Shown: positions 354-50,810 of the stretch, piece after piece | How the letters are laid out: each line of letters begins with the position of its first letter | Numbering within the stretch: the stretch's first letter is position 1 | DNA from: a virus | Taxonomy: Duplodnaviria; Caudoviricetes | IMG/VR virus record: IMGVR_UViG_3300005077_000489 | Location: 1 to 64,000 of that record | Reading direction: 5' to 3' (one strand) | Length of the DNA: 64,000 nucleotides | Notes under the pieces: model-generated | Database searches by the model: none | What the model was told of the DNA's origin: nothing | Seen by the model: only the letters and a program-made list of their open reading frames with translations | Program-made: the position numbers and the translations under genes

Positions 354-480
354 GTGAACTATCCTTACCTAAAGGTAAGGGCTTCCTGTAGCTGAACTAC
401 AGTACTATCTTGTAAAAGATAGGCTTGTCCCAAGCAAAATATGTTTTTAGCTGCATTTATATCGCGATCATCAACATTAC
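354..480 (-). ncRNA. Putative TnpB omega-RNA scaffold overlapping the tnpB 3' end (5' boundary uncertain)
   Basis: Minus-strand hairpins CTATCT/AGATAG and CTGTAG/CTACAG, then the right-end hairpin ending TTCAC. TnpB omega-RNAs are known to derive from this position. Confidence 0.6.
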
Positions 481-1480: not shown

Positions 1481-1689
1481 CGTTGTAATGCTCTCTGATT
1501 CTCAACATATTGTTTAATTATATCTATAGTAACGTTGCCTGTTGTTGCTAAAAAATATGATGGAGACCAAAATGCATCTCCTCCAGGCCAATATCGATCC
1601 TTCATTAGACGTCTAATTTCAGCTATACGTTCGTCATCGTAAACCACTTTGAAGCGTCCACTGATAGGTTTATGCCACATACGCCACAT
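1477..1689 (-). pseudogene. tnpA: Truncated Y1 transposase TnpA (C-terminal part only)
   Basis: [34 protein letters not shown] matches the IS200 TnpA C-terminus including the catalytic Tyr helix. Only 70 aa and no HUH motif. Confidence 0.8.
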
Positions 1690-4600
1690 TATCTCTCCTT
1701 AAAGGTCTTTACGTTCCCAATATCCGTCCGGATTGACTACCCACTCGCCAAAGGGGCTAGTGTACATTTGCACGTCTCCGTTGGGTAGGTGGTAAAACGG
1801 CGGCCAGAATTTCCCTTTACAAGCCACGCACGTTATAGGGTGTTCTACACCCTCTATTTCACGGGGAGACACATCTCCGCACTTAGGGCATTTTATAGTT
1901 ACGAGATACTCATACCAAGGTTTATCATTCACTTCATTCCATTCATAACCTGGGCAGGGAGTAGAAGGTTTGTCAAAAGAATAGTTCTTTGTACAAATCC
2001 ACTTAAAGTTGACTTTAGGTTCTCCCTCCCCGTCCAAACATATGCAATCCCAACATTCTTTATCCAGGATCATTTTACAGTTCCCTCCACTGGAGTTGTC
2101 TTAAGTAAAAGGTGTATTTCAGTGACTTGTTTTTCTATGAGGATGATCCGATGCTCTACCTTAATTAACATAAAGAAAAGACATATAAACCAAATGGTCA
2201 AAAATAAAAATACTACGCTTAGATGTTGTCCCATTAATGCAACCTCCAGATCTCTACCGGCCACAGGAATAGGCTATGACCCAAATGATTCCAACCATGC
2301 CACCACCTAGCGTTGTTTAAGGAGTCTTGGATCATGTTCAGGCCCGCCCATATCATACCTATGCCTAGATATATACATGTGATACTACTTATCATATTTC
2401 TATCCTTTCTTAGAAAATTTTAAAAATTACCTACTTATTAAAATGCGGCTCAAAATATGTCTCGCGTTTATGAGTCCATTTTTTTATCATTTCAGTCCCC
2501 CATTTTGATACGCCACTCTACCTGTCTACGTAAGTCAGGGTCCATCCTGTCCCAATGAGTTTTTTGTTGTTTCAAGATATGGGCGTGCCATTTATCTGTT
2601 ATCCACATATATAGCCGTATTTGCCAAAGTATATATTTTGCTCTTAAGTCTTCTGTCATTTCAGTCCCCCGCCGAATATATAAGGCAAAGACAATAGTAC
2701 GTAACAAATAGTCCCTGCCGCCGCTAAGGGATTTATAGGTCCCATAATAGTTACTATATTAATCAAACAAAAAACTAATCCTACCAGTATAAATAGCTGC
2801 CATCCGTTAAGGTGCATCTTCCAAAACCTCCGGTAGTCCTTTTAGGGCTATCTTTTCACCTATTGAATTTTTGGCGTATCCACACTATTCCACCGATCAC
2901 AGTTATTACAGGCCATAACAAAGCTACTATAACATCTTTCCACCACGGTCTATAAGGGTGGTCATAGAAAGACAACAAGGCTACCAATATATAAAGTGCT
3001 AAAAAGAATTCTGCGTAAGTCATACTTGTTTCCTCCGGTAAGCTTCTCTTACACAATTAAGTCCTTCTTTTTCATCCAAATTGCTACCTATATAGCTACA
3101 ATAGAATGGCATATCGCGGGCTTGCATAACTTTGTATGCAATATCATAATCACAATTTTTACAATCTATTTCCAATGCAAAATTTAACCATCCATTGTTG
3201 GTGCCCGCGGCTATACGGGCTCTTTTGGCTGCTAAAGCCTTCCGTTTATTAGCTTTCATTATTATTCCCCTAATTGCATTATTTCTTCGGCTACTGCCGC
3301 GTCTGAATGTTGTACGTTAGTCCCCACCGCTTTCCACTTGGCAAATAATCGGTCAAATACTTCTATTTGCCGCGGGGATATAACAGTTAGAGACCCCACA
3401 CCTTCATTTATGTCTTTTTGAAACCGGTGCTGCAGCCAAATACGCCTATATCCGTCTCCACAGGAATTAGCCAAGGTAACGTCATGTTTTAACTCGGGCA
3501 TTATACCATACACGTAAGACGTATCACAGTCCTCTCGATAATTACGATAAACACGATAATAAATTTTAAAGTGTGGGGTGTCGGCTAAAGTTATTAGTTT
3601 TTCTAGAAAAGGGATCATATCATCATCTGAAACTGCCGAATATTGCCCTTCTGATTTGTCTTCATGGTAGTGTGTAATTATTTTCATTTGTGTGTCCTCA
3701 AGGAATCAAATGATTCGGTGACCTTCCCGCCGTTAGATTCTGCATGCTCTAATAGTAACATAACATCTTCATACACTTCCAATTTAGTAGCCATCGTGGG
3801 AGACCACATTTTTACATTATCCCTATAGTGTTTATACCAATCTATTTCACTTTTAATTAAGTCTTTTACGGTCATTTATTAATGTCACACTACCTTATCC
3901 ATTCTTATCAATATACTACACAAATAATCCGCCACCGTTATCTTGTCTTCTGCTAAAGCTGTTTCTATTTTAGTTAGTAACATCAATTTTATGTTCTTCA
4001 ATTTAGCAGCTAAGGTTGTTTGGTCTCTGTCCGCAGGGCTGGCGGAGACTTCCTCTAAACGATTTAGCACAGTTATAATTTCGTTCATTTTATTCCCCAG
4101 CATGTAAGAGCCGTCACTGCGATAAAAGTCGGATGCTTTTATTTTCTCTACCATTCTTTACCTCTCTGTATAAAATATTATTATAAATAAAAATACTACT
4201 ATTATTATCCACCATATCCATTCCATTATCTTTCCTCCGCAATATAATCTCCTAATTTATATTCATAGTTCTCACGTTCTTGCCAACCGATTAAACTGGG
4301 GTATAGTAAACACCATTCTTGCACACCTTTGTCATTGGGTTCTTTTACTAAGATTAACAAATCATAATGGTCGGGGTCTTTACGAAATTTGTTGCGTGCC
4401 CAATAATACCCGGGCTTAATATTTTCTATGTCTTTTAGTTTATTCTTATAGATTTCTCTGGCTTTCTCTATTCGTTCTTGTAGTTCTTTTATTTGTTCGT
4501 CTTTTCTTCTTAATGCAGAATCTAATTCGTGTTTTCTATCATATAACAGTTCTTGTAACTGCGCGCGGTCTCTTTGTAAATCTTTTAAACGTTCCAGTAA

Positions 4601-7085: not shown

Positions 7086-9204
7086 CTTCAGCTACCTCCT
7101 AAGAGTGTATGTTATCAGGATAGGCTTTACGCTCTATCTTTTTCCTTAGACAACTAGCCCCCGGGTTAGTTCCCTAAGAAAAATTTAATTTATATTGGCT
7201 TAAATCTAAACTTTTTAAGACATTATAATCCCAATCGCCCGCGAGACTTATCACATTGTTAGGGCTTTTTACCCATATGGTTTTAACTGCATACTCGCGG
7301 GGAGCCTTATAACACTTTCCTACGTTTTCATATATCCCCTTTTCTCCATTATGTAAATATTCTACGCCTTCTAACCAAGCTAACATAGATCGTCTGTCTG
7401 CCCCTACTCCGCCCGCTTCTTCGTCGGTTTGAATATATAGTTTAATTATCAAATGCTTATCCGGCTCCCAATAATTAGTTTCTACTTGTGCGGGGCGTAT
7501 TCCTTCATCCATATATTCTATATAATAAGACATTAATCCAGCCCCCTTAACAAGGTATCCAGCGTATTGTCCAAACCGTCTTTACGTAACCGTGATTCAT
7601 TTATTCTTTTATTTATTCTTACTATTTCATCGTCGTAGACCAAATCAGACCAGATAACTCCTACTTTATCTCTTATTTCTATTTGTCCTGCTACATTACT
7701 TTTTTGATAATAAATAGTAAATTCTTCGTTTAATTTGGCTACATTAGAATAAGCATTATTATGCTTGTATCTCCATGGTAAATTTCGTTGCTCTATAATT
7801 TTTAGTACTTTTTCTTTTGTGGTCATACTCATTTGATGCCTAGAACCTCCTTACACTTCTCGGGTTCTTTTATACAATCTATTGATATACATCCTGCAAA
7901 TGCTTTCTTTTTTTGACATTCATCACAGTCTTCCTCTTTACCAAAATTATTATTTATGGTGATAGAGGAGTATTTTTCCTTAACTTCCGCCGCGGTGGCG
8001 GGTCCTAATCTCAATTTCAATAAACCGTTTTCAGTTTGACGTTCTACATTAAAATAATGTGCAAACACTGCAAAACCTATTATTCCTAATAATATTATGA
8101 TTAGTTCTCTAGCGTACTTTATTGCGCGCATCTTAAAAGTAAAATTATAGTCATCTTTCCATTGTTGCGGGTCCATCTCTAACGCACCACTGTATCTCGG
8201 GCAGTTTGTATTCTAGGATTTATTTTGTTTAGTTCATTAAACAATTCTACCCACTCTGTTTCTTCACCCGGTAATTTTATTTCTTCTTCGCAGGTCCACA
8301 CTTGAATTATCTTTTCCCAATCGTGTAGACGGATAGAATAAGGGACAAAGTTTGTGACTATATATTTTCCATCACGTAATTGGAAAATTGTTCTCGCACG
8401 CGTTGAAGTTATGAGTTTTCCTTCTATTATTAATTTGGTGCCATTTGTTCTATCATATACGTGTGTGTCACTCAATACGTTTTTCCAAGACCTATATAAA
8501 TCAGGAATACCGAATATCACAGGGAAAAGCATTACCGCCGAACCAAAGATTATCGCGGGTGTGCCCTTGGCTGCGTCCTTATCTCTTACTATACTTATTA
8601 ATCCTGTTATGATAGCCCATAAACTAAAGACCACTAATCCAATAACAATTAAAGTAAGAACTGTTAAACCTATATGCATATTATTATTCCCCGAATAAAT
8701 TATCTAAACGCTTTACTTCCTCTAGAGCTATCATAGCACGTAAGGCGTCCCCGTAATCTATCCACTTTGCTGCTTGCTCTTGCAGCCCTAGGCGTACTGC
8801 GTCATAGTTTTCTCTGCTACATCTTACTACTTGACCTTTATGTACTGCGTTTATTGCTTGTAATACTTCGTCCATGTTTCTCTTCCTTCCGTATAATTTT
8901 TTTTAAAATTTTTTTAATAGTATTCTACGTCTAATAGCATCAGGAGTTTTACAGGCGTCACATAACCAGTCATTACCATCATTATGTAATTCTAATGTTC
9001 TGTATATCTCAGTTTTTCGTCTTAATGTATTATACTCATACGAAATGCTTTCTCTCACGCTTTTTCGTGTGGTCTGACCACAACTAGGACATTCCCAAGC
9101 ATAATCACTAGTGGTGTATCCATGACCACTTAGCACCGAATGGTCTTCTATTATTGTAGTTATTCGCAATTCCATTCTTGGTCACCTTCTCTTATCAAAT
9201 ATAA

Positions 9205-9501
9205 CTATTTTCTCCTTGGTGCGTTGTTGTGCTCCATACAAGCAACAGCCATAGCGGCTATTTTCCTTATTTCACCTAAGGCGGGCCACTCTCCTTCTTC
9301 ATAGAGTAAACGCTTGGCTTCTCCTAGATGATACTCTATGAATAACACCCACTCACTAATGGTATGTTCTAAGTCGTGCCCCAAACCTCCCCAGCGGAGG
9401 TCTTGATACTCTCTTTCTTCACTAATTATTTCGAATATTTTTTGTCTTTCGATCATGTTTGAATCCTTTTCACTAAAACGGGATATAAATTTGATAAGCA
9501 C
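9205..9501 (-). CDS. MazG-like/all-alpha NTP pyrophosphatase-like protein
   Basis: EREYQDLRWG...EWVLFIEYHLGEA...GEIRKIAAMAVACME pattern. Confidence 0.5.
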   Translation of the reverse strand: MLIKFISRFSEKDSNMIERQKIFEIISEEREYQDLRWGGLGHDLEHTISEWVLFIEYHLGEAKRLLYEEGEWPALGEIRKIAAMAVACMEHNNAPRRK

Positions 9502-9673
9502 CAGTACAATTACTGGGCTTATGTGGTTCTACTGCACGCATGATACGATCATTCTCACAATCACGTATTAAATGGTATTGTTGTGTACCGGTGGCACATC
9601 CGGTTAGAAACAGTGTGATTAAGACTAATAATATTAATCTCATTTTTTTGAATCCTTTTTTATATATTTGCAT
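9473..9673 (-). CDS. Small lipoprotein
   Basis: Hydrophobic stretch ending in lipobox LTGC. Confidence 0.6.
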   Translation of the reverse strand: MQIYKKGFKKMRLILLVLITLFLTGCATGTQQYHLIRDCENDRIMRAVEPHKPSNCTGAYQIYIPF

Positions 9674-9705
9674 CTAATATTACAAAAGACAGGAGGTACA
9701 CTGAA

Positions 9706-9882
9706 ATGACTGAAGAAGAATTCCAAAAAAAATATAAAGAAGTTCACGAATATGCTCTCGGAATAGAATCTCCCATGCCGGATGATGAATATGCTAGGTG
9801 GCTAACCGAGAAGCGTAGAGAACATCTTAAGAAAGAAATAATGCGTTGTGCTTGTCCATCCTGCGACGAATCATGTTGTTAA
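9706..9882 (+). CDS. 58-aa protein with Cys-rich C-terminus, lone plus-strand gene in the left arm
   Basis: RBS AGGAGG, ATG at 9706, MTEEEFQKKYKEVHEYALG...IMRCACPSCDESCC*, followed by a hairpin. Below the ORF-track size cutoff. Confidence 0.7.
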   Translation: MTEEEFQKKYKEVHEYALGIESPMPDDEYARWLTEKRREHLKKEIMRCACPSCDESCC

Positions 9883-25059: not shown

Positions 25060-25563
25060 GGGCGCGAAAGGTTTCGACGTAGGTTGAAGGACGTATTTGT
25101 AGGATAGCAGGTGTGAGTAATACCTTAAATTATTCAAAACAACAAATGCCGAAGATTATTCTATCTTGGATGCAGTTCTTTATTGCGTAGAGCAAGACCG
25201 TAGCGGGGTTAAACTCGCTTCTTAAAGAACCAGCGGGGTTCCCAATAACCTAGCAACAGAAAATTGGGTACGGAGCGAAGCTTCCTTCTTGGTTGAAGAA
25301 GAGAAAGACAACCTGGCGGAAGGAACGTAGGAAACTACGACCCCAATATAGGAGTAGAAATACCCTTTCTCGGCGCACAGAAGTTTGTGCATGAACTTAT
25401 TCACATGCAGAAGCAACTTAGTTACGCGAAACATGTAGGTGTAGCGTGTGCGGAAACCGTGTAATCCTACAACTCTCTGTCGGGAGTCTAAAATGGACTA
25501 TGCTATCTAAACTATTGATATGAGAAGACATTACGAACTCCAGTTCAATTCTGGACGCGTCCA
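25060..25563 (+). ncRNA. ssrA: tmRNA
   Basis: 5' GGGCGCGAAAGGTTTCGAC pairs with 3' CGCGTCC-A including the G3:U pair. T arm TCCAG-TTCAATT-CTGGA. Tag ORF 25148-25225 reads AEDYSILDAVLYCVEQDRSGVKLAS*. Confidence 0.92.
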
Positions 25564-25608
25564 AAACCCAACTTATTAATAATACTAGGGAATAATGGTT
25601 AAATATAT

Positions 25609-44983: not shown

Positions 44984-45904
44984 ATGAATATACTTTATAA
45001 CTTATATAAACAATATAATTTTATGGATGCTACTATTGTTCAAGGAATGAGATCTTTGGGTCATCATGTATTTAGTGTCAATGAGGTAGCTAGTAATTAT
45101 GCAGAGCCTTATAATGGAGAGGATTATAGCCTTTATTTCCATTCTGGGCGTCTACCCTTCTCACCAAATCAAGCATCAATTCCTTCCGACTTGAAGGATG
45201 TTCCACGTATTCTTGTTTGGGGGCACGACTCAGGGATAACAAAAGAGCATCAATGGTTTCCTGATATATTAGGGTGGGATGCCTGCTTTATTCGTGATCT
45301 CCGCGAAAATTGTGGATCAAATGTTTTTCCAATTCACTACGGGATAGAAGATCGTTATTATTGTGAAACAAAAGAACTACGAAAACCACTCAGGGACAGG
45401 TCTATTGATATTTTCTTTAGAGGACAGTTATATAAGCACAGAGCCCAAATTCTTGCTGAGATCCAAAAAGAGTTTGGAAATACCTATATCCTATCAATTA
45501 ATGATAGGAGTCTTGATGACACAGATGACTTATGGACCCCGCAAATGAAAGATGGTAGAGGTATTCATCAAATTTCTTACTACCAGCAGATGGCAGATTC
45601 TAAAATAGTTCTCTCACTTTTAGGACTAGGACCTGACTGTGCGAGACATTGGGAGGCATTGGCATCTGGGGCAGTACCCCTTATTCAATTTATGCCAATT
45701 ATATATGTTAAGCCGTGGTTGAAAAATACGCAGGAGTATTTTTATTTTACTGGAATTGATGATTGTCTGTATATCATATCAGAATTACTAGAAAATCTTG
45801 ACCTGGCTCAATCTGTAGCTAATGCTGGCTTTGAATCCGGCATGCAGAATCATACAACCGCAAGTCGGGCAGAATATATCCTCGGATGTTTGGGGGTTAA
45901 ATAA
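44984..45904 (+). CDS. Glycosyltransferase, CgeB-like (GT-B)
   Basis: IDIFFRG, YYQQMADSKIVLSL, RHWEALASGA, VANAG...NHTTASRAEYIL. Confidence 0.82.
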   Translation: MNILYNLYKQYNFMDATIVQGMRSLGHHVFSVNEVASNYAEPYNGEDYSLYFHSGRLPFSPNQASIPSDLKDVPRILVWGHDSGITKEHQWFPDILGWDACFIRDLRENCGSNVFPIHYGIEDRYYCETKELRKPLRDRSIDIFFRGQLYKHRAQILAEIQKEFGNTYILSINDRSLDDTDDLWTPQMKDGRGIHQISYYQQMADSKIVLSLLGLGPDCARHWEALASGAVPLIQFMPIIYVKPWLKNTQEYFYFTGIDDCLYIISELLENLDLAQSVANAGFESGMQNHTTASRAEYILGCLGVK

Positions 45905-48900
45905 TGCCTTTTATTCGGGATTCTATATGGGTTTATGAATCGGTAACAACCGATGCTGGTATTACTATTCCAATGCCAGCATATCAAGAGAACGATCTTA
46001 TCCTTGTTTTTGCTGCCTCTGATACAGGTGCAACAACATGGGGTTGTTCTGGGTTTACTCAACTCTATGCACGTGCTAACACCGTTTATACAGTGTGCTA
46101 TTACAAGATTGCAACCTCTAGTGAGAGTGACGTTGCGGTAACAGGTTCAAAAAACGAAACGTACAATGGGTGTGTTATTACTATTGGTGATGTTGATACT
46201 TCTTACCCATTTGGAAACCCGGCCGTTTATTCTGAAGCGGGTCTGACAACCGGTACTCGTTATAATATGCCCCAAATTACAACTGATAGAGATAATTGTC
46301 TAATAATATATTTTATGGCTCTTGCTGTGGTGTCCGCTCCCACCTTTATTCAGGGACCGGTTAATTATTTGATCGGAGGTGATGGTGCAGCAGAGTCTAT
46401 GGGGGTAGGGTGGGGATTTCAAAAAGCCCAGGGATCAACCGCAAGTAATGTTTATTCTGCGACCTACGCTTCGGCGGCTGGTGCTAGAGCAGTTATTGAA
46501 ATTGCTGCCCCAGCCACAGGAGCATTAGTAATTCCTTCATATGTTGCTTCCGATTCTTGTAGATTATTGAATCTTATTCATGGTACTACGGCTTGGAACG
46601 GTGATACGGCATTGGCGGCTACGGCAGACTCAAACTTTGGAACCAGTCTAGGTGGGAAAACAGCGAACGATGCAACGGTAGCTGCAGCACAAGATATAGG
46701 AATAATGTCCTTTCACGCTATGGGGGGACTTACAAACGCGAATACAGTCGGACAAATCAGTGGTGCAGAGTTGGTATTTGCTGTTGGTAACCGTCCTAAT
46801 GTAGGTACAAAAAACATTCTGTGCCACGTCAGACCTACTACTCCTGCTCACAGCCAGAGATTTGCCTCGGTTGTTAGCGGACGCGGGTTTTGGTTTGGTA
46901 TGCGTTCAAACACTACCGGAACATCGGATCATATGATTTGGCAGGTTCATGGTTCTGATGCTCCTTGGTCTCCTTCTGAACACGTTCCTATTATTATCAA
47001 TTCAGCGGCAGCGAATGCAAAAGATACTGCTGGGACACTTACTACATCCGCCATTACAGCATTCGGTTTTTGGAATAGTGGAATTTCCAACCTTACTTGT
47101 CAGATGTCCGTAGGTATGCTGTGGTTAATGGATGTAACGGTCATTGCAGGAGGAAACGCGGCTTATCCAATGACAATTCCAGACATTGCTTATATTTGTG
47201 GTGCCAAAGGTAAAGAACGGTATAGTGTAAAACAGCAGGGAGTTTCCCAGATGCTCTGTTTACAACAAATACAATTTGGTAACGGGGGTACAAATCCCAT
47301 ATACCTTAAATTAGAAAATACTGCTATCGAGTTCCCCAAGCAATATGATGCTGCTTCTAAGGTTGTTAATTATAATTCTACAGATAATATGGTAGGTATT
47401 ACTTACTACCCTGGTCCAAATGATACCATTATTCATCGTAATAGTTTGGTTTCAAGTCCTTCTAAATATTTCTGGGGACTACATTCCTCAGCGACTACTT
47501 CGGGTGTCTATGATTTTTCCGGGCTTACCTTAATTGGTGCGGGTCAAATAACACTTATTTCTGGTGTTGCCCTAGATGGCTTAGTTTTTATGGGTTGTGA
47601 CGAAGTACCGGCAGTAGGGGCTGTACTAACTAACTGCGAATTTAATGCTACCGTCGGGAGCGGTTCCCTTTCTGTTTCGTCGTCCGCGGAGATGTCTTCT
47701 ATATCTTCTTGTATTTTTTCTGATAATACATATGGGATACGCCTAACTAGTAGTTCTGCTGATACGTATTCTTTCGATAATATCCAATTTAACAATAATA
47801 CTAATGACCTTTACATAGGGGCTACAACCGGTACTGTTACGATTAATGTAGTAGGGGGAGATACGCCTACATATACTTCTGCTGGTGCTGATGTTGTAGT
47901 AAACAATTTAAAAACATTAACGTTAACTGGGTTAGTTCCTGATAGTGAAGTAAGGATTTATGGTTCTTCACAAGGAGGAACCACTAGTGGTACGCTAAGT
48001 AGTTTTAGCGAAACATTATCTTTATTTGGTGAGGGACTGGGCGATATGTCCTTCCGGCAGATATTACCATTTTCGGAAGCGGGGGAGTCTGTTCGGGTTA
48101 AGGTAAAATCCCCAGAGTTAGGAATTTTGAAGATAGACCATGCTTCTATAGGGGTTCAGGATACCGGCATTAATACTGTTTCTACTCCAGTAGAGATAAA
48201 GTGGGGCGGTAGCTCTGGTGTCACGCTGAGTGGCGGTACAATGGGTGCATCCTCTTCTTCTTATAGTACCACGTTAGATACACAAGATTCGGGGTGGGTT
48301 GGAGATAGTATAAGACAAATAGTTACATTCAGTAATGGGGGAACTCAAGTACGTGTAAGGGTCATTTCTTCTTCTTCTTATGGTACTGATATAGATCACA
48401 TGTCTATAGGAGAACAGGATACCGGTATAAATACTACGGAAACTCCTACAGAATTAAAGTTCGGTGGTAGCTCGGGTGTCAGTTTAGATGCTGGCTCCTC
48501 TTCTGAGTGGAGTGATTGGACTGATTTTCCCTCATCCGGCAGTACAGCTTATGTAATCATAATCGACTATGCGTCATCAAACGGTGGAATTGCTTATACT
48601 AGTGGGGCGAGTGTTAGTAGATACTATAAGGATGCTACTGCCACATGGGACCAGGCATCCGTTACAGGCTTCACAGGACCAGGAACTTATACATATACTT
48701 TTTATTCAATTGAAGTTAGGAGTGTGACCGGTTCTGCGGTGGAATCTTGGAGCGACTGGACTACATTTAATTCTGTTGAGGGTAACCAAATAATAATTTT
48801 TGATATGGCTGCTACCAACTCTGGTATTGCTTATGCTACCGGGTCAAGTGTTGATGCTTATTTTAAAGATGAGACTGATAGCTGGAACCAGTCTAGTGTC

Positions 48901-49182
48901 ACAGGCTTCACAGGACCAGCAGATTATAATTATGGTATAAGTGAGGTAGAGGTTTATTATGAGAACACAACTACCAGCGGGGAGATAGTTGAGTTGGGAG
49001 GGGTCGAAAACTCTAGTTCTAGTTTCCAATACTTATATAATTATACTGATAATACCTATGTGGATATAGTGATACATCATTTAAACTATCAATATTTTAG
49101 GATGGATAGTTATGAATTACCAGAGGCAGATACTTCACTTCCTATAAGTCAAGTAGTAGATAGAAGCTATTTGAATTCATAG
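45904..49182 (+). CDS. Large virion/surface protein with beta-helix-like middle and nested duplicated C-terminal domains
   Basis: 1092 aa, Ser/Thr/Gly rich; repeats F.NN..G/D in the middle; duplicated IDH.SIG.QDTGINT and WSDWT.F blocks. Confidence 0.75.
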   Translation: MPFIRDSIWVYESVTTDAGITIPMPAYQENDLILVFAASDTGATTWGCSGFTQLYARANTVYTVCYYKIATSSESDVAVTGSKNETYNGCVITIGDVDTSYPFGNPAVYSEAGLTTGTRYNMPQITTDRDNCLIIYFMALAVVSAPTFIQGPVNYLIGGDGAAESMGVGWGFQKAQGSTASNVYSATYASAAGARAVIEIAAPATGALVIPSYVASDSCRLLNLIHGTTAWNGDTALAATADSNFGTSLGGKTANDATVAAAQDIGIMSFHAMGGLTNANTVGQISGAELVFAVGNRPNVGTKNILCHVRPTTPAHSQRFASVVSGRGFWFGMRSNTTGTSDHMIWQVHGSDAPWSPSEHVPIIINSAAANAKDTAGTLTTSAITAFGFWNSGISNLTCQMSVGMLWLMDVTVIAGGNAAYPMTIPDIAYICGAKGKERYSVKQQGVSQMLCLQQIQFGNGGTNPIYLKLENTAIEFPKQYDAASKVVNYNSTDNMVGITYYPGPNDTIIHRNSLVSSPSKYFWGLHSSATTSGVYDFSGLTLIGAGQITLISGVALDGLVFMGCDEVPAVGAVLTNCEFNATVGSGSLSVSSSAEMSSISSCIFSDNTYGIRLTSSSADTYSFDNIQFNNNTNDLYIGATTGTVTINVVGGDTPTYTSAGADVVVNNLKTLTLTGLVPDSEVRIYGSSQGGTTSGTLSSFSETLSLFGEGLGDMSFRQILPFSEAGESVRVKVKSPELGILKIDHASIGVQDTGINTVSTPVEIKWGGSSGVTLSGGTMGASSSSYSTTLDTQDSGWVGDSIRQIVTFSNGGTQVRVRVISSSSYGTDIDHMSIGEQDTGINTTETPTELKFGGSSGVSLDAGSSSEWSDWTDFPSSGSTAYVIIIDYASSNGGIAYTSGASVSRYYKDATATWDQASVTGFTGPGTYTYTFYSIEVRSVTGSAVESWSDWTTFNSVEGNQIIIFDMAATNSGIAYATGSSVDAYFKDETDSWNQSSVTGFTGPADYNYGISEVEVYYENTTTSGEIVELGGVENSSSSFQYLYNYTDNTYVDIVIHHLNYQYFRMDSYELPEADTSLPISQVVDRSYLNS

Positions 49183-49296
49183 TCCCTAGTTCTCAGAGAC
49201 GGACAGTTCTATTCCTAGAAGAACTTACAGTCTGGGGCTACAGACTGGCTACGCGAGTAGCGGAAGCCCCCACCTTTAGGTGCGGGGAGTAGTCAC
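49183..49296 (+). ncRNA. Orphan IS200/IS605 right end / TnpB omega-RNA-like scaffold
   Basis: Ends GAAGCCCCCACC-TTTA-GGTGCGGGGAGTAGTCAC, like the tnpB-linked end at 354-385. Upstream hairpins CAGTCTG/CAGACTG and GCTAC-GCGA-GTAGC. No adjacent tnp gene. Confidence 0.7.
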
Positions 49297-49448
49297 TTAG
49301 ATTAACTATCTTTGTTTTCCCTAATAGAAGTCGGGATAGGTGTCATTCTCTATTTTCCAAGGAATAAATCTAAGACAACAAGTAAATATAATTTAATATC
49401 CTGACTTAATAAAGGTATTATAATTTTATTTATGGAGGTTTTAACACT

Positions 49449-50810
49449 ATGGCGATTATTACAGACCCTGATAATTTGAATCAGCATAGTGAAGTCGGGA
49501 TTTCTACCAATAACAAAACTATTGCTTGTAGTACTTCTGGTAACTTAACTACTGATGGAGTGGGTTTGCAGTGTCTTTATTCATTTCTGAAGGAAGAATG
49601 GAAGAATGATACTTTATTAATCAAATATCCTTTTCCTATGTTGGCTATTACGGAAGAGAAATTTGAGTTAATCAATGGTTGGGATTTCGCTAACTCTACG
49701 ACTAAAGAATTGATTAGAACAGGAGGTTGGGCTCTTAAGGATACGGGTGGAAGCACTCTGGAAGAGTATGCTGGTATTATAACCCTAGGTAGTTTAGATT
49801 CCGGCGATCAAGTTTATTATCAGCAATCTGCTGCTGGGGCTGCGACTAATATGGTATTAACTGGTCCCGCAAATCAAGCAGTTAAAACTTATGGTGATGT
49901 AACGCACGGTAACTTTGATTATCGCACATATTTTAAAATTTTCTGTCGTGAGTATCAAAAGATATATGCTTCTGCCCAGCTGAGCGACATCGGTGTTACC
50001 ACCATGACATACCAAGTGTACCGTTTCCCTGTTACTAACAGTGCTGATACAAAAATTACACACAATGATGCTACTGTGTCAGGTAGTTCTCCTTATGATG
50101 GAATGAGTCTTACTTGGTCCGGTTCTGCTTTTCAAAGAGATATCGGCGGGACCAGCAGGAATTTTCATGTGCTCATCGACGGTAACGATGGGACAGCCGA
50201 GCAGATTTACGAGTTTGTTCAATATCGACTGCGACAGAACGAGGATATTGATGAAGGTACCGGGGAAAAGATAGGAAAAGTTACCAATGACCTTTTAAGA
50301 TTCGTTGGTGATACTCTCTATACGCGGTTAGATAGTAATGGCGGGGTATTTATTGATAATTTTCAAACGGTTGACCGGAACCGTTTGGTTTTTGTCGATG
50401 ATACCGGGACTGAACGAACATTCCCATATGTTGCTGTTCTTACCTTGCAGTTTGGTGATAACCTAGTAAATGATGCCCAAGCTATTTATCGTGTCTTTTT
50501 TACTAACGATGATGCTGGTGATAATAATGGTTATGATTTTGGTACTTCAAACGCTATCACTGTCGATGATAATGATGATGTTCCTATGACTGGTAGTGTT
50601 TCTGGTGCCTCTTCTACGCAGTTGACTTTTGATTATGATAACAATGATCAAAGAGGGACTGGAAGTGCGGGGACTGAAGCACCTATTACTGTTGTTGCAC
50701 TGGGGCTGTCTACAGCACAGTATGTTATTGCTACCGGAACAATTGCACGAAGTATCAGTAACACCATATCTCTCGTGTCAAGCCTTGAGAGAAACTATAT
50801 CAATCCATAA
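49449..50810 (+). CDS. Putative virion structural protein
   Basis: MAIITDPDNLNQ...LYSFLKEEWK...YPFPM start recalled from uncharacterised phage structural proteins; ends ERNYINP, like the DRSYLNS end of the upstream protein. Confidence 0.65.
   Translation: MAIITDPDNLNQHSEVGISTNNKTIACSTSGNLTTDGVGLQCLYSFLKEEWKNDTLLIKYPFPMLAITEEKFELINGWDFANSTTKELIRTGGWALKDTGGSTLEEYAGIITLGSLDSGDQVYYQQSAAGAATNMVLTGPANQAVKTYGDVTHGNFDYRTYFKIFCREYQKIYASAQLSDIGVTTMTYQVYRFPVTNSADTKITHNDATVSGSSPYDGMSLTWSGSAFQRDIGGTSRNFHVLIDGNDGTAEQIYEFVQYRLRQNEDIDEGTGEKIGKVTNDLLRFVGDTLYTRLDSNGGVFIDNFQTVDRNRLVFVDDTGTERTFPYVAVLTLQFGDNLVNDAQAIYRVFFTNDDAGDNNGYDFGTSNAITVDDNDDVPMTGSVSGASSTQLTFDYDNNDQRGTGSAGTEAPITVVALGLSTAQYVIATGTIARSISNTISLVSSLERNYINP

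Follow-up and report, generated by a model that had tools for sequence, protein, structure and literature searches.

A tnpB-less, omega-RNA-like right-end module of an IS605-type lineage in the genome of a large phage

The intergenic locus and its neighbors

The window analyzed here is a 64-kb stretch of DNA, the first part of a 211,229-bp virus record (the 211-kb record, G000) whose completeness is estimated at 86%, with 14% estimated to be missing. An intergenic region of 266 nt in the window follows the TAG stop codon (49180-49182) of an ORF of 1092 amino acids. Searches of Pfam and PHROG with the ORFs on either side (45904-49182 and 49449-50810) gave no family, hence no function for the two genes and no match to a nuclease or transposase, in agreement with a preliminary description of the DNA that had reported an element lacking both kinds of gene. 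The same description placed an element of about 115 nt right after the stop codon. The stop codon is where it was said to be, but the extent had to be redrawn: the element comprises TTAC plus 68 nt (49225-49296).

No Rfam family was found at the locus, either at gathering thresholds or at permissive E-values, and a BLAST search of a phage collection with the locus gave no match. Folding of the single sequence is mildly better than that of shuffled versions (z = -1.9), so that the case for the element rests on comparison with other sequences. The GC content of the 68-nt unit is 59%, versus 38% for the genome, which fits recent arrival or constraint alike. Relatives of the downstream gene (66 loci, the best at 77% amino acid identity) are preceded by intergenic regions of 3-132 nt without the element, which is thus lineage-specific. 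Elsewhere in the window, 25060-25566 (+) matches the Rfam tmRNA family (RF00023) just at the gathering score (47.1 versus 47 bits); the match is 507 nt long versus 374 positions in the model, and ARAGORN predicted no tmRNA and no tRNA in the window.

Parts of the element

The conserved unit spans 68 nt (49229-49296) with TTAC (49225-49228) directly 5' of it. The intergenic sequence and the element divide as follows.

49183-49224, +: spacer, 42 nt between the stop codon and the element, outside the conserved unit
49225-49228, +: TTAC, the putative TAM and left cleavage site of the IS lineage, abutting stem 1
49228-49247, +: stem 1, CAGTCTG/CAGACTG, 7 bp, loop GGGCUA; covariation at each of the 7 pairs in the 13 relatives
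49248-49261, +: hairpin 2, GCUAC-GCGA-GUAGC, 5 bp; 3 conserved pairs, all covarying
49262-49266, +: linker GGAAG, part of the GAAGCCC motif, 5' of the last stem
49267-49287, +: 3' stem, 8 pairs with one bulge; UUUA tetraloop at 49275-49278
49288-49296, +: tail AGUAGUCAC; 49290-49294 form the 3' strand of the pseudoknot
49297-49316, +: would-be guide flank TTAGATTAACTATCTTTGTT, positioned by the rule for IS200/IS605 omega-RNAs (PMC10691335)

The spacer is common to neither the second copy of the element nor any relative; it contains a weak 6-bp hairpin (AGTTCT..AGAACT), and no TTTA-loop hairpin of the left-end type is present in it. The C of TTAC (49228) is also the first base of stem 1. Both this stem and the hairpin 2 with its GNRA-type GCGA loop are present in the sequence as first described. 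Stem 1 is identical in sequence in the element at this locus (copy 1), in copy 2 and in a tnpB-linked element of a relative phage (L258, below), and positions 49236-49240 of its loop form the 5' strand of the pseudoknot. Hairpin 2 keeps its helix position among relatives and varies in sequence and loop: the loop measures 8 nt in copy 2, and the stem at this place in L258 is unrelated. The GAAGCCC motif is invariant in the 13 relatives and in about 150 loci found by pattern search, among the matches listed. The 3' stem is paired in 100% of cells in the relatives and is the counterpart of stem 4 of the ISDra2 omega-RNA and of the right-end hairpin bound by TnpA.

The element closes with GAAGCCC..CC-TTTA-GG..AGTAGTCAC, up to 49296, and the recognized likeness of this 3' end to the tnpB-linked end at 354-449 (-) is real. 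Position 49296 is the transposon right end (TCAC, with the boundary after its last base), and similarity to the other copy and to relatives stops exactly after TCAC.

A covarying RNA family

A degenerate pattern for the 3' module retrieved 30 viral loci and at least 120 bacterial or archaeal loci. In 58 of the 150 matches listed, a tnpB detectable by tblastn ends inside the module; many other matches lie at contig ends or are without tnpB. Two tail types can be distinguished, ..GGGUAGUUCAC, which includes the tnpB-linked end of this phage, and ..GGGGAGU(NN)UCAC, which includes the orphan copies. An alignment (A3) of 13 relatives of the latter type, none of them from this phage, was analyzed by RNAalifold and by pair counting, and a covariance model (R1) was built from it. 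Counts for the individual helices in the 13 relatives were:

Stem 1: 7 pairs, 7 covarying
Hairpin 2: 3 pairs, 3 covarying
3' stem: 8 pairs, 1 covarying
Pseudoknot: 5 pairs, 2 covarying, 100% paired

Compensatory double changes thus occur in 13 of 23 pairs, the pseudoknot included, and 95% of cells are paired versus 39-50% when the partners are slid. Scores against R1 were:

tnpB-linked homologue in L258: 79.4 bits
Copy 2: 74.2 bits
Copy 1: 65.5 bits, E about 1e-17 (2e-17)
Copy 3: 33.3 bits
Resident tnpB end: 22.8 bits

The match of copy 1 to a model made from 13 relatives, the kind of omega-RNA model check that had been called for, is far beyond chance, and copy 1 forms every pair of R1. Of the two candidate pseudoknots, the one originally proposed (loop GGGCU with AGCCC) did not survive comparison: no pair changes in a compensatory way, 10 of the 13 relatives fail to form the middle pair, and the pairing competes with the 3' stem. 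The supported pseudoknot joins the stem-1 loop (49236-49240) with the tail at 49290-49294, i.e., tail positions -7 to -3. Its loop strand reads G-R-Y-K-A, and two of its pairs vary on both strands, from C-G to U-A three times and from U-A to G-C three times.

This architecture closely parallels that of the ISDra2 TnpB omega-RNA (reRNA) resolved by cryo-EM (Nakagawa et al. 2023; PMC10097598), in which pre-guide bases pair with the stem-1 loop region, the guide-proximal stem is closed by a UUUA tetraloop at -20 to -17, and the region 5' of stem 1 is dispensable. The orphan shares with it the UUUA-capped stem beside the guide, the pseudoknot between loop and tail, a scaffold that starts at the foot of stem 1, and a guide position in the flank beyond the right end. 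The block common to copies 1 and 2 likewise starts at the foot of stem 1. Unlike ISDra2, with a scaffold of 116 nt, the orphan scaffold measures 68 nt and has a single short hairpin in place of stems 2 and 3; its tail is 2 nt longer, which puts UUUA at -22 to -19; its probable TAM is TTAC rather than TTGAT; and no tnpB overlaps it. From its likeness to the solved ISDra2 complex, the 68-nt unit appears to be a compact yet complete core scaffold.

A tnpB-linked homologue in a relative phage

The sole metagenome match to the 20-mer of stem 1 is L258, part of a 259,732-bp contig (Ga0247841_10000060) that is syntenic with window 59.6-65 kb at roughly 50-80% amino acid identity; the exact stem-1 25-mer had no match in species genomes. 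In L258, a stem 1 and loop identical to those of the orphan form the 3' end of a tnpB gene of 373 amino acids, within a complete tnpB-only IS (L258 8064-9846; left end from 8604, tnpB 8708-9829, right end 9846). The insertion site of this IS is a TTAC in the 3' end of an ORF of 185 amino acids; the matching region of the window, at about 61.3-61.66 kb, has neither the ORF nor the IS.

The left end of the L258 IS reads TTAC|CGAAAT.., followed by AAAG and then by a TTTA-loop hairpin. A common layout, TTAC, then 16-20 nt ending in AAAG, then the hairpin, is found in L258 and in the protein-less derivatives (PATEs) of a Chloroflexi genome (G002; 149 nt) and a Gemmataceae genome (G003; roughly 245 nt), and autonomous copies with tnpA are present in a Chloroflexia genome. 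Since three independent left ends lie at TTAC, this tetranucleotide is the likely TAM and left cleavage site of the lineage, with TCAC as its right end. An earlier alternative, TTGAA/TTGAC as the TAM of an element of 115-125 nt, was rejected on the evidence of the same three left ends, and a start at TTGAA/TTGAC was also rejected on the grounds that the upstream hairpin of copy 2 resembles the terminator of the upstream gene.

TTAC lies immediately 5' of the element at both intact phage copies; L258 reads ..ATTCT ahead of stem 1, at the place where both orphan copies have TTAC. In homologues (L258, L143/L226) the scaffold overlaps or adjoins tnpB, and the flanks of the orphan hold no tnpB. The left-end hairpin occurs in the G002 and G003 PATEs, in the L258 IS and in a further PATE (L187), with AAAG seen in the first three; no such hairpin lies upstream of either intact phage copy, so the two are not PATEs in the strict sense.

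Further copies in the record

The preliminary description had recommended a genome-wide search for further orphan copies, and such copies exist; the element is not unique. A BLAST of the whole record revealed copy 2 at G000 71586-71659, 88% identical, which starts with TTAC (G000 71586-71589) and ends with TCAC. The covariance model added a decayed copy 3 at G000 206076-206151 (+) (locus L223 1501-1576), in which CAAGCCC replaces the invariant GAAGCCC, the end is TCAA and stem 1 is unrecognizable. The tail of copy 3 is of yet another type (AGUGUCA-) in what is again a tnpB-less right-end module, and its neighbors are a nucleotide-sugar epimerase-like gene and a gene of PHROG-20637. All three copies are on the + strand, intergenic, just past a stop codon and co-directional with their neighbors.

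Between copies 1 and 2 there are 6 substitutions and 2 indels. No change affects stem 1, either strand of the pseudoknot or the tail; a pair of the 3' stem is A-U in copy 1 and G-C in copy 2 and in 13/13 relatives, a compensatory double change; copy 2 no longer forms one innermost pair of hairpin 2; and the remaining differences fall in loops, the bulge and the linker. The pattern is suggestive of structural constraint (p about 0.01-0.1 by a hand calculation, with indels counted or not). This constraint may have operated in the population of the source IS or, for TnpA, on the DNA itself. A purely inert fossil fits the pattern less well, a hint of continued constraint. Beyond the right ends, the flanks at 49297-49303 and G000 71660-71665 both contain AGATT with a one-base offset (TTAGATT versus AAGATT), perhaps a coincidence, perhaps a short stretch of flank common to both.

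Guide and target

The would-be guide, for which no second copy had been seen in the window, proved to have none in the 211-kb record, nor was there any near-match flanked by TTAC. Matches of 16-mers from the guides of copies 1 and 2 in IMG/VR are of the order expected by chance on a rough estimate; none extends and none is flanked by TTAC. The only conceivable target would be an allele without the unit, that is, TTAC plus the flank. Such an empty allele was not found among the relatives of the downstream gene, which are too diverged; the neighbors of copy 2 are without close relatives in which to look for an empty site; and in two DNA runs, which contain only small shares of the sequence, the contigs are distant relatives and none bridges the element. 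Among the sequencing runs listed as containing the sequence there is no RNA run. The failure to find an empty allele is thus a consequence of the distance of the available relatives.

Origin and possible activity

The element is probably a stand-alone derivative of an IS605-family (TnpA/TnpB) transposon targeting TTAC, without tnpB and without a left end. It appears to retain the omega-RNA core scaffold in full, from stem 1 with its pseudoknot loop through hairpin 2 and the UUUA-capped 3' stem to the tail that closes at the right end. What the comparisons show directly is homology, covarying helices, two intact copies and one decayed copy in this phage, and the full tnpB-linked homologue in L258. 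One of the two options initially offered, a non-autonomous IS remnant with an omega-RNA-like scaffold, is thereby favored through homology, covariation and the full tnpB-linked homologue of the relative phage.

If the scaffold is used at all, it would be read through from the upstream gene of 1092 amino acids, and its cognate TnpB would cut the RNA back as far as the stem 1 foot and take the following 16-20 nt past the right end (49297-49316) as the guide. The target would be TTAC plus flank, present only in a genome without the unit; any activity would for that reason amount to homing or retention of the unit in mixed infections, a known role of omega-RNAs. Since the 211-kb record contains no TnpB of the cognate lineage, and the one that is resident belongs, as set out below, to another, the element is most likely an inert or conditionally active selfish passenger rather than the two-locus partner of the resident nuclease. 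With the record 86% complete, a cognate tnpB could lie in the missing part.

Besides the hint of continued constraint, one feature counts against reading the element as a remnant. Two copies that lack the left end have the same TTAC junction, which a remnant leaves unaccounted for; the chance of TTAC at the junction of both copies is about 1e-3 by rough arithmetic from base composition. It is possible, though unlikely, that the unit is a self-contained guide gene, consisting only of TAM and omega-RNA scaffold, that is kept by selection in huge phages and uses the cognate TnpB of a co-infecting relative (for example, the L258 phage) or of the host to cut sibling genomes without the unit. Were this so, the unit would home, or exclude competitors, without a protein or a left end, and would be the smallest possible IS605 derivative.

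The junction also bears on an unlikely proposal, that the scaffold-only unit of 68-70 nt constitutes by itself a minimal element able to move or home to sites 3' of TTAC and is kept intact by selection. Both copies start exactly at TTAC: from this motif on they are identical at 24/24 positions, and the 8 nt before it match at 1/8. In copy 2, a hairpin of 17 pairs that resembles a terminator of the upstream gene has a T-tail ending in this TTAC, which hence looks like native target DNA, and the differences between the copies spare helices and pseudoknot, save for the one compensatory pair and the one innermost pair of hairpin 2. The candidate movers would be a TnpA that uses the single 3' hairpin for both cleavage sites, or copying driven by TnpB. 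TnpA needs two hairpins in IS608, however, and the phage copies have neither the left-end hairpin nor the AAAG guide that all PATEs of the family checked for them possess. Moreover, a strict pattern found no other scaffold abutted by TTAC in IMG/VR, and the proposal has to contend with two copies only and with no empty allele found.

The resident TnpB as a proposed partner

The window contains a tnpB gene of its own, at its start:

354-449, -: omega-RNA scaffold and right end of the resident tnpB; tail ..GGAUAGUUCAC, UUUA at -20 to -17
365-1480, -: resident tnpB, 371 amino acids; Pfam OrfB_IS605, Cas12f1-like_TNB and HTH_OrfB_IS605
1495-1605, -: truncated tnpA, only positions 87-121 of the Y1_Tnp profile

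The tnpA stump (window 1495-1690, -) corresponds to the C-terminal third of the Y1 domain within an ORF of roughly 70 amino acids. No left end of the resident tnpB element is visible, so that this element is itself immobile.

The preliminary description had put first the idea of a minimal two-locus system, in which the orphan scaffold would supply this TnpB (365-1480) with a second guide RNA acting in trans. In favor of this idea, the protein has visible RuvC D/E/D motifs (GLDLG, IEDLS, DRDINAA), and no other TnpB homologue occurs in the 211-kb record. Its scaffold and the orphan have in common GAAGCCC, the UUUA-loop stem and the design of the pseudoknot between stem-loop and tail. ISDra2 TnpB contacts its RNA mainly via the backbone (PMC10097598), and stand-alone omega-RNAs without an effector or transposase can work together in trans with effectors that are compatible (Altae-Tran et al. 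2021, summarized in PMC10691335). The two differ in lineage, however. The resident TnpB is 35% identical to the TnpB of L258, and its scaffold, which carries one additional hairpin and whose tail falls 2 nt short of that in orphan-type scaffolds, scores 22.8 bits against R1, versus 65-79 bits for the intact orphans and the L258 homologue. In a maximum-likelihood tree of 30 TnpBs onto which the tail type was mapped, the tail type clusters strongly, with 2 changes versus about 10 in shuffles, 0/500 of which were as low. Three viral TnpBs of the ..GGGUAGUUCAC tail type, the resident one among them, make up one starred clade; the TnpB of L258 is placed in another starred clade, whose six orphan-type members come from Chloroflexota and Armatimonadota and lie about 2.9 substitutions per site from the resident protein. 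Tail type therefore follows the TnpB tree, and the resident TnpB belongs to a different, co-evolving TnpB/scaffold lineage, which makes its use of the orphan scaffold unlikely. No target for the guide was found in the 211-kb record or in IMG/VR, and the left end that would show the resident TnpB's own TAM is gone. The two-locus proposal is thus distinctly unlikely.

That the element is not derived from an IS at all, and is a phage regulatory RNA or terminator merely resembling a transposon end, might be suggested by its intergenic position directly past a long, late-type gene and by its stable fold (z = -1.9), but is effectively refuted by E-values of 1e-17 to 1e-20 with a model from unrelated genomes and by the same sequence forming the 3' end of a tnpB gene in L258, with neither a predicted terminator-like T-run nor an Rfam match in its favor.

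Relation to known elements

The element thus appears to be a well-preserved stand-alone omega-RNA or right-end module of a TTAC-type IS605 lineage, a class that has already been described, and TnpB genes in phages are likewise already known. Stand-alone OMEGA omega-RNAs (PMC10691335) resemble it in comprising a locus without effector or transposase, with an OMEGA effector elsewhere in the genome; here, unlike there, that effector is of another TnpB/scaffold lineage and the setting is a 211-kb phage. PATEs are protein-less derivatives of IS200/IS605 elements that encode omega-RNAs (Meers et al. 2023 preprint, 10.1101/2023.03.14.532601). Like them, the orphan has no ORF, keeps the right end and scaffold, has TTAC at its left boundary and is present in more than one copy; unlike them, it lacks the left-end hairpin and the AAAG guide, and TTAC lies directly against the scaffold.

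The reference element for the IS200/IS605 group is IS608 of Helicobacter pylori, which has TTAC as left cleavage site and TAM, AAAG 5' of the foot of the left hairpin, and a TCAx tetranucleotide at the right end, a few bases past the hairpin. The orphan family likewise has TTAC, AAAG and a right end of the TCAx type. It differs from IS608 in sequence and host lineage, and the phage copies are without tnpA, tnpB and left end.

The locus is of interest as a case of TnpB element decay in a huge phage, in which the nuclease gene and left end have been lost and the RNA scaffold survives twice. For a TnpB lineage of the TTAC type, it also provides a compact natural scaffold of 68 nt whose pseudoknot clearly covaries. 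Were the scaffold used in trans, guide genes without any protein could spread from one co-infecting phage to another as hitch-hiking homing elements.

PATEs, which keep both ends but no protein gene, occur in Chloroflexi, in Gemmataceae and in other phages. Several large phage contigs harbor tnpB-less copies of the ..GGGUAGUUCAC tail type (L072, L095, L092/L098, L087/L093, L076 and L082/L096): those of L072/L095 and L092/L098 are full PATEs with a left-end hairpin, and those of L087/L093, L076 and L082/L096 are stubs cut at differing points. One phage contig of 106 kb carries three tnpB-less copies of this tail type.
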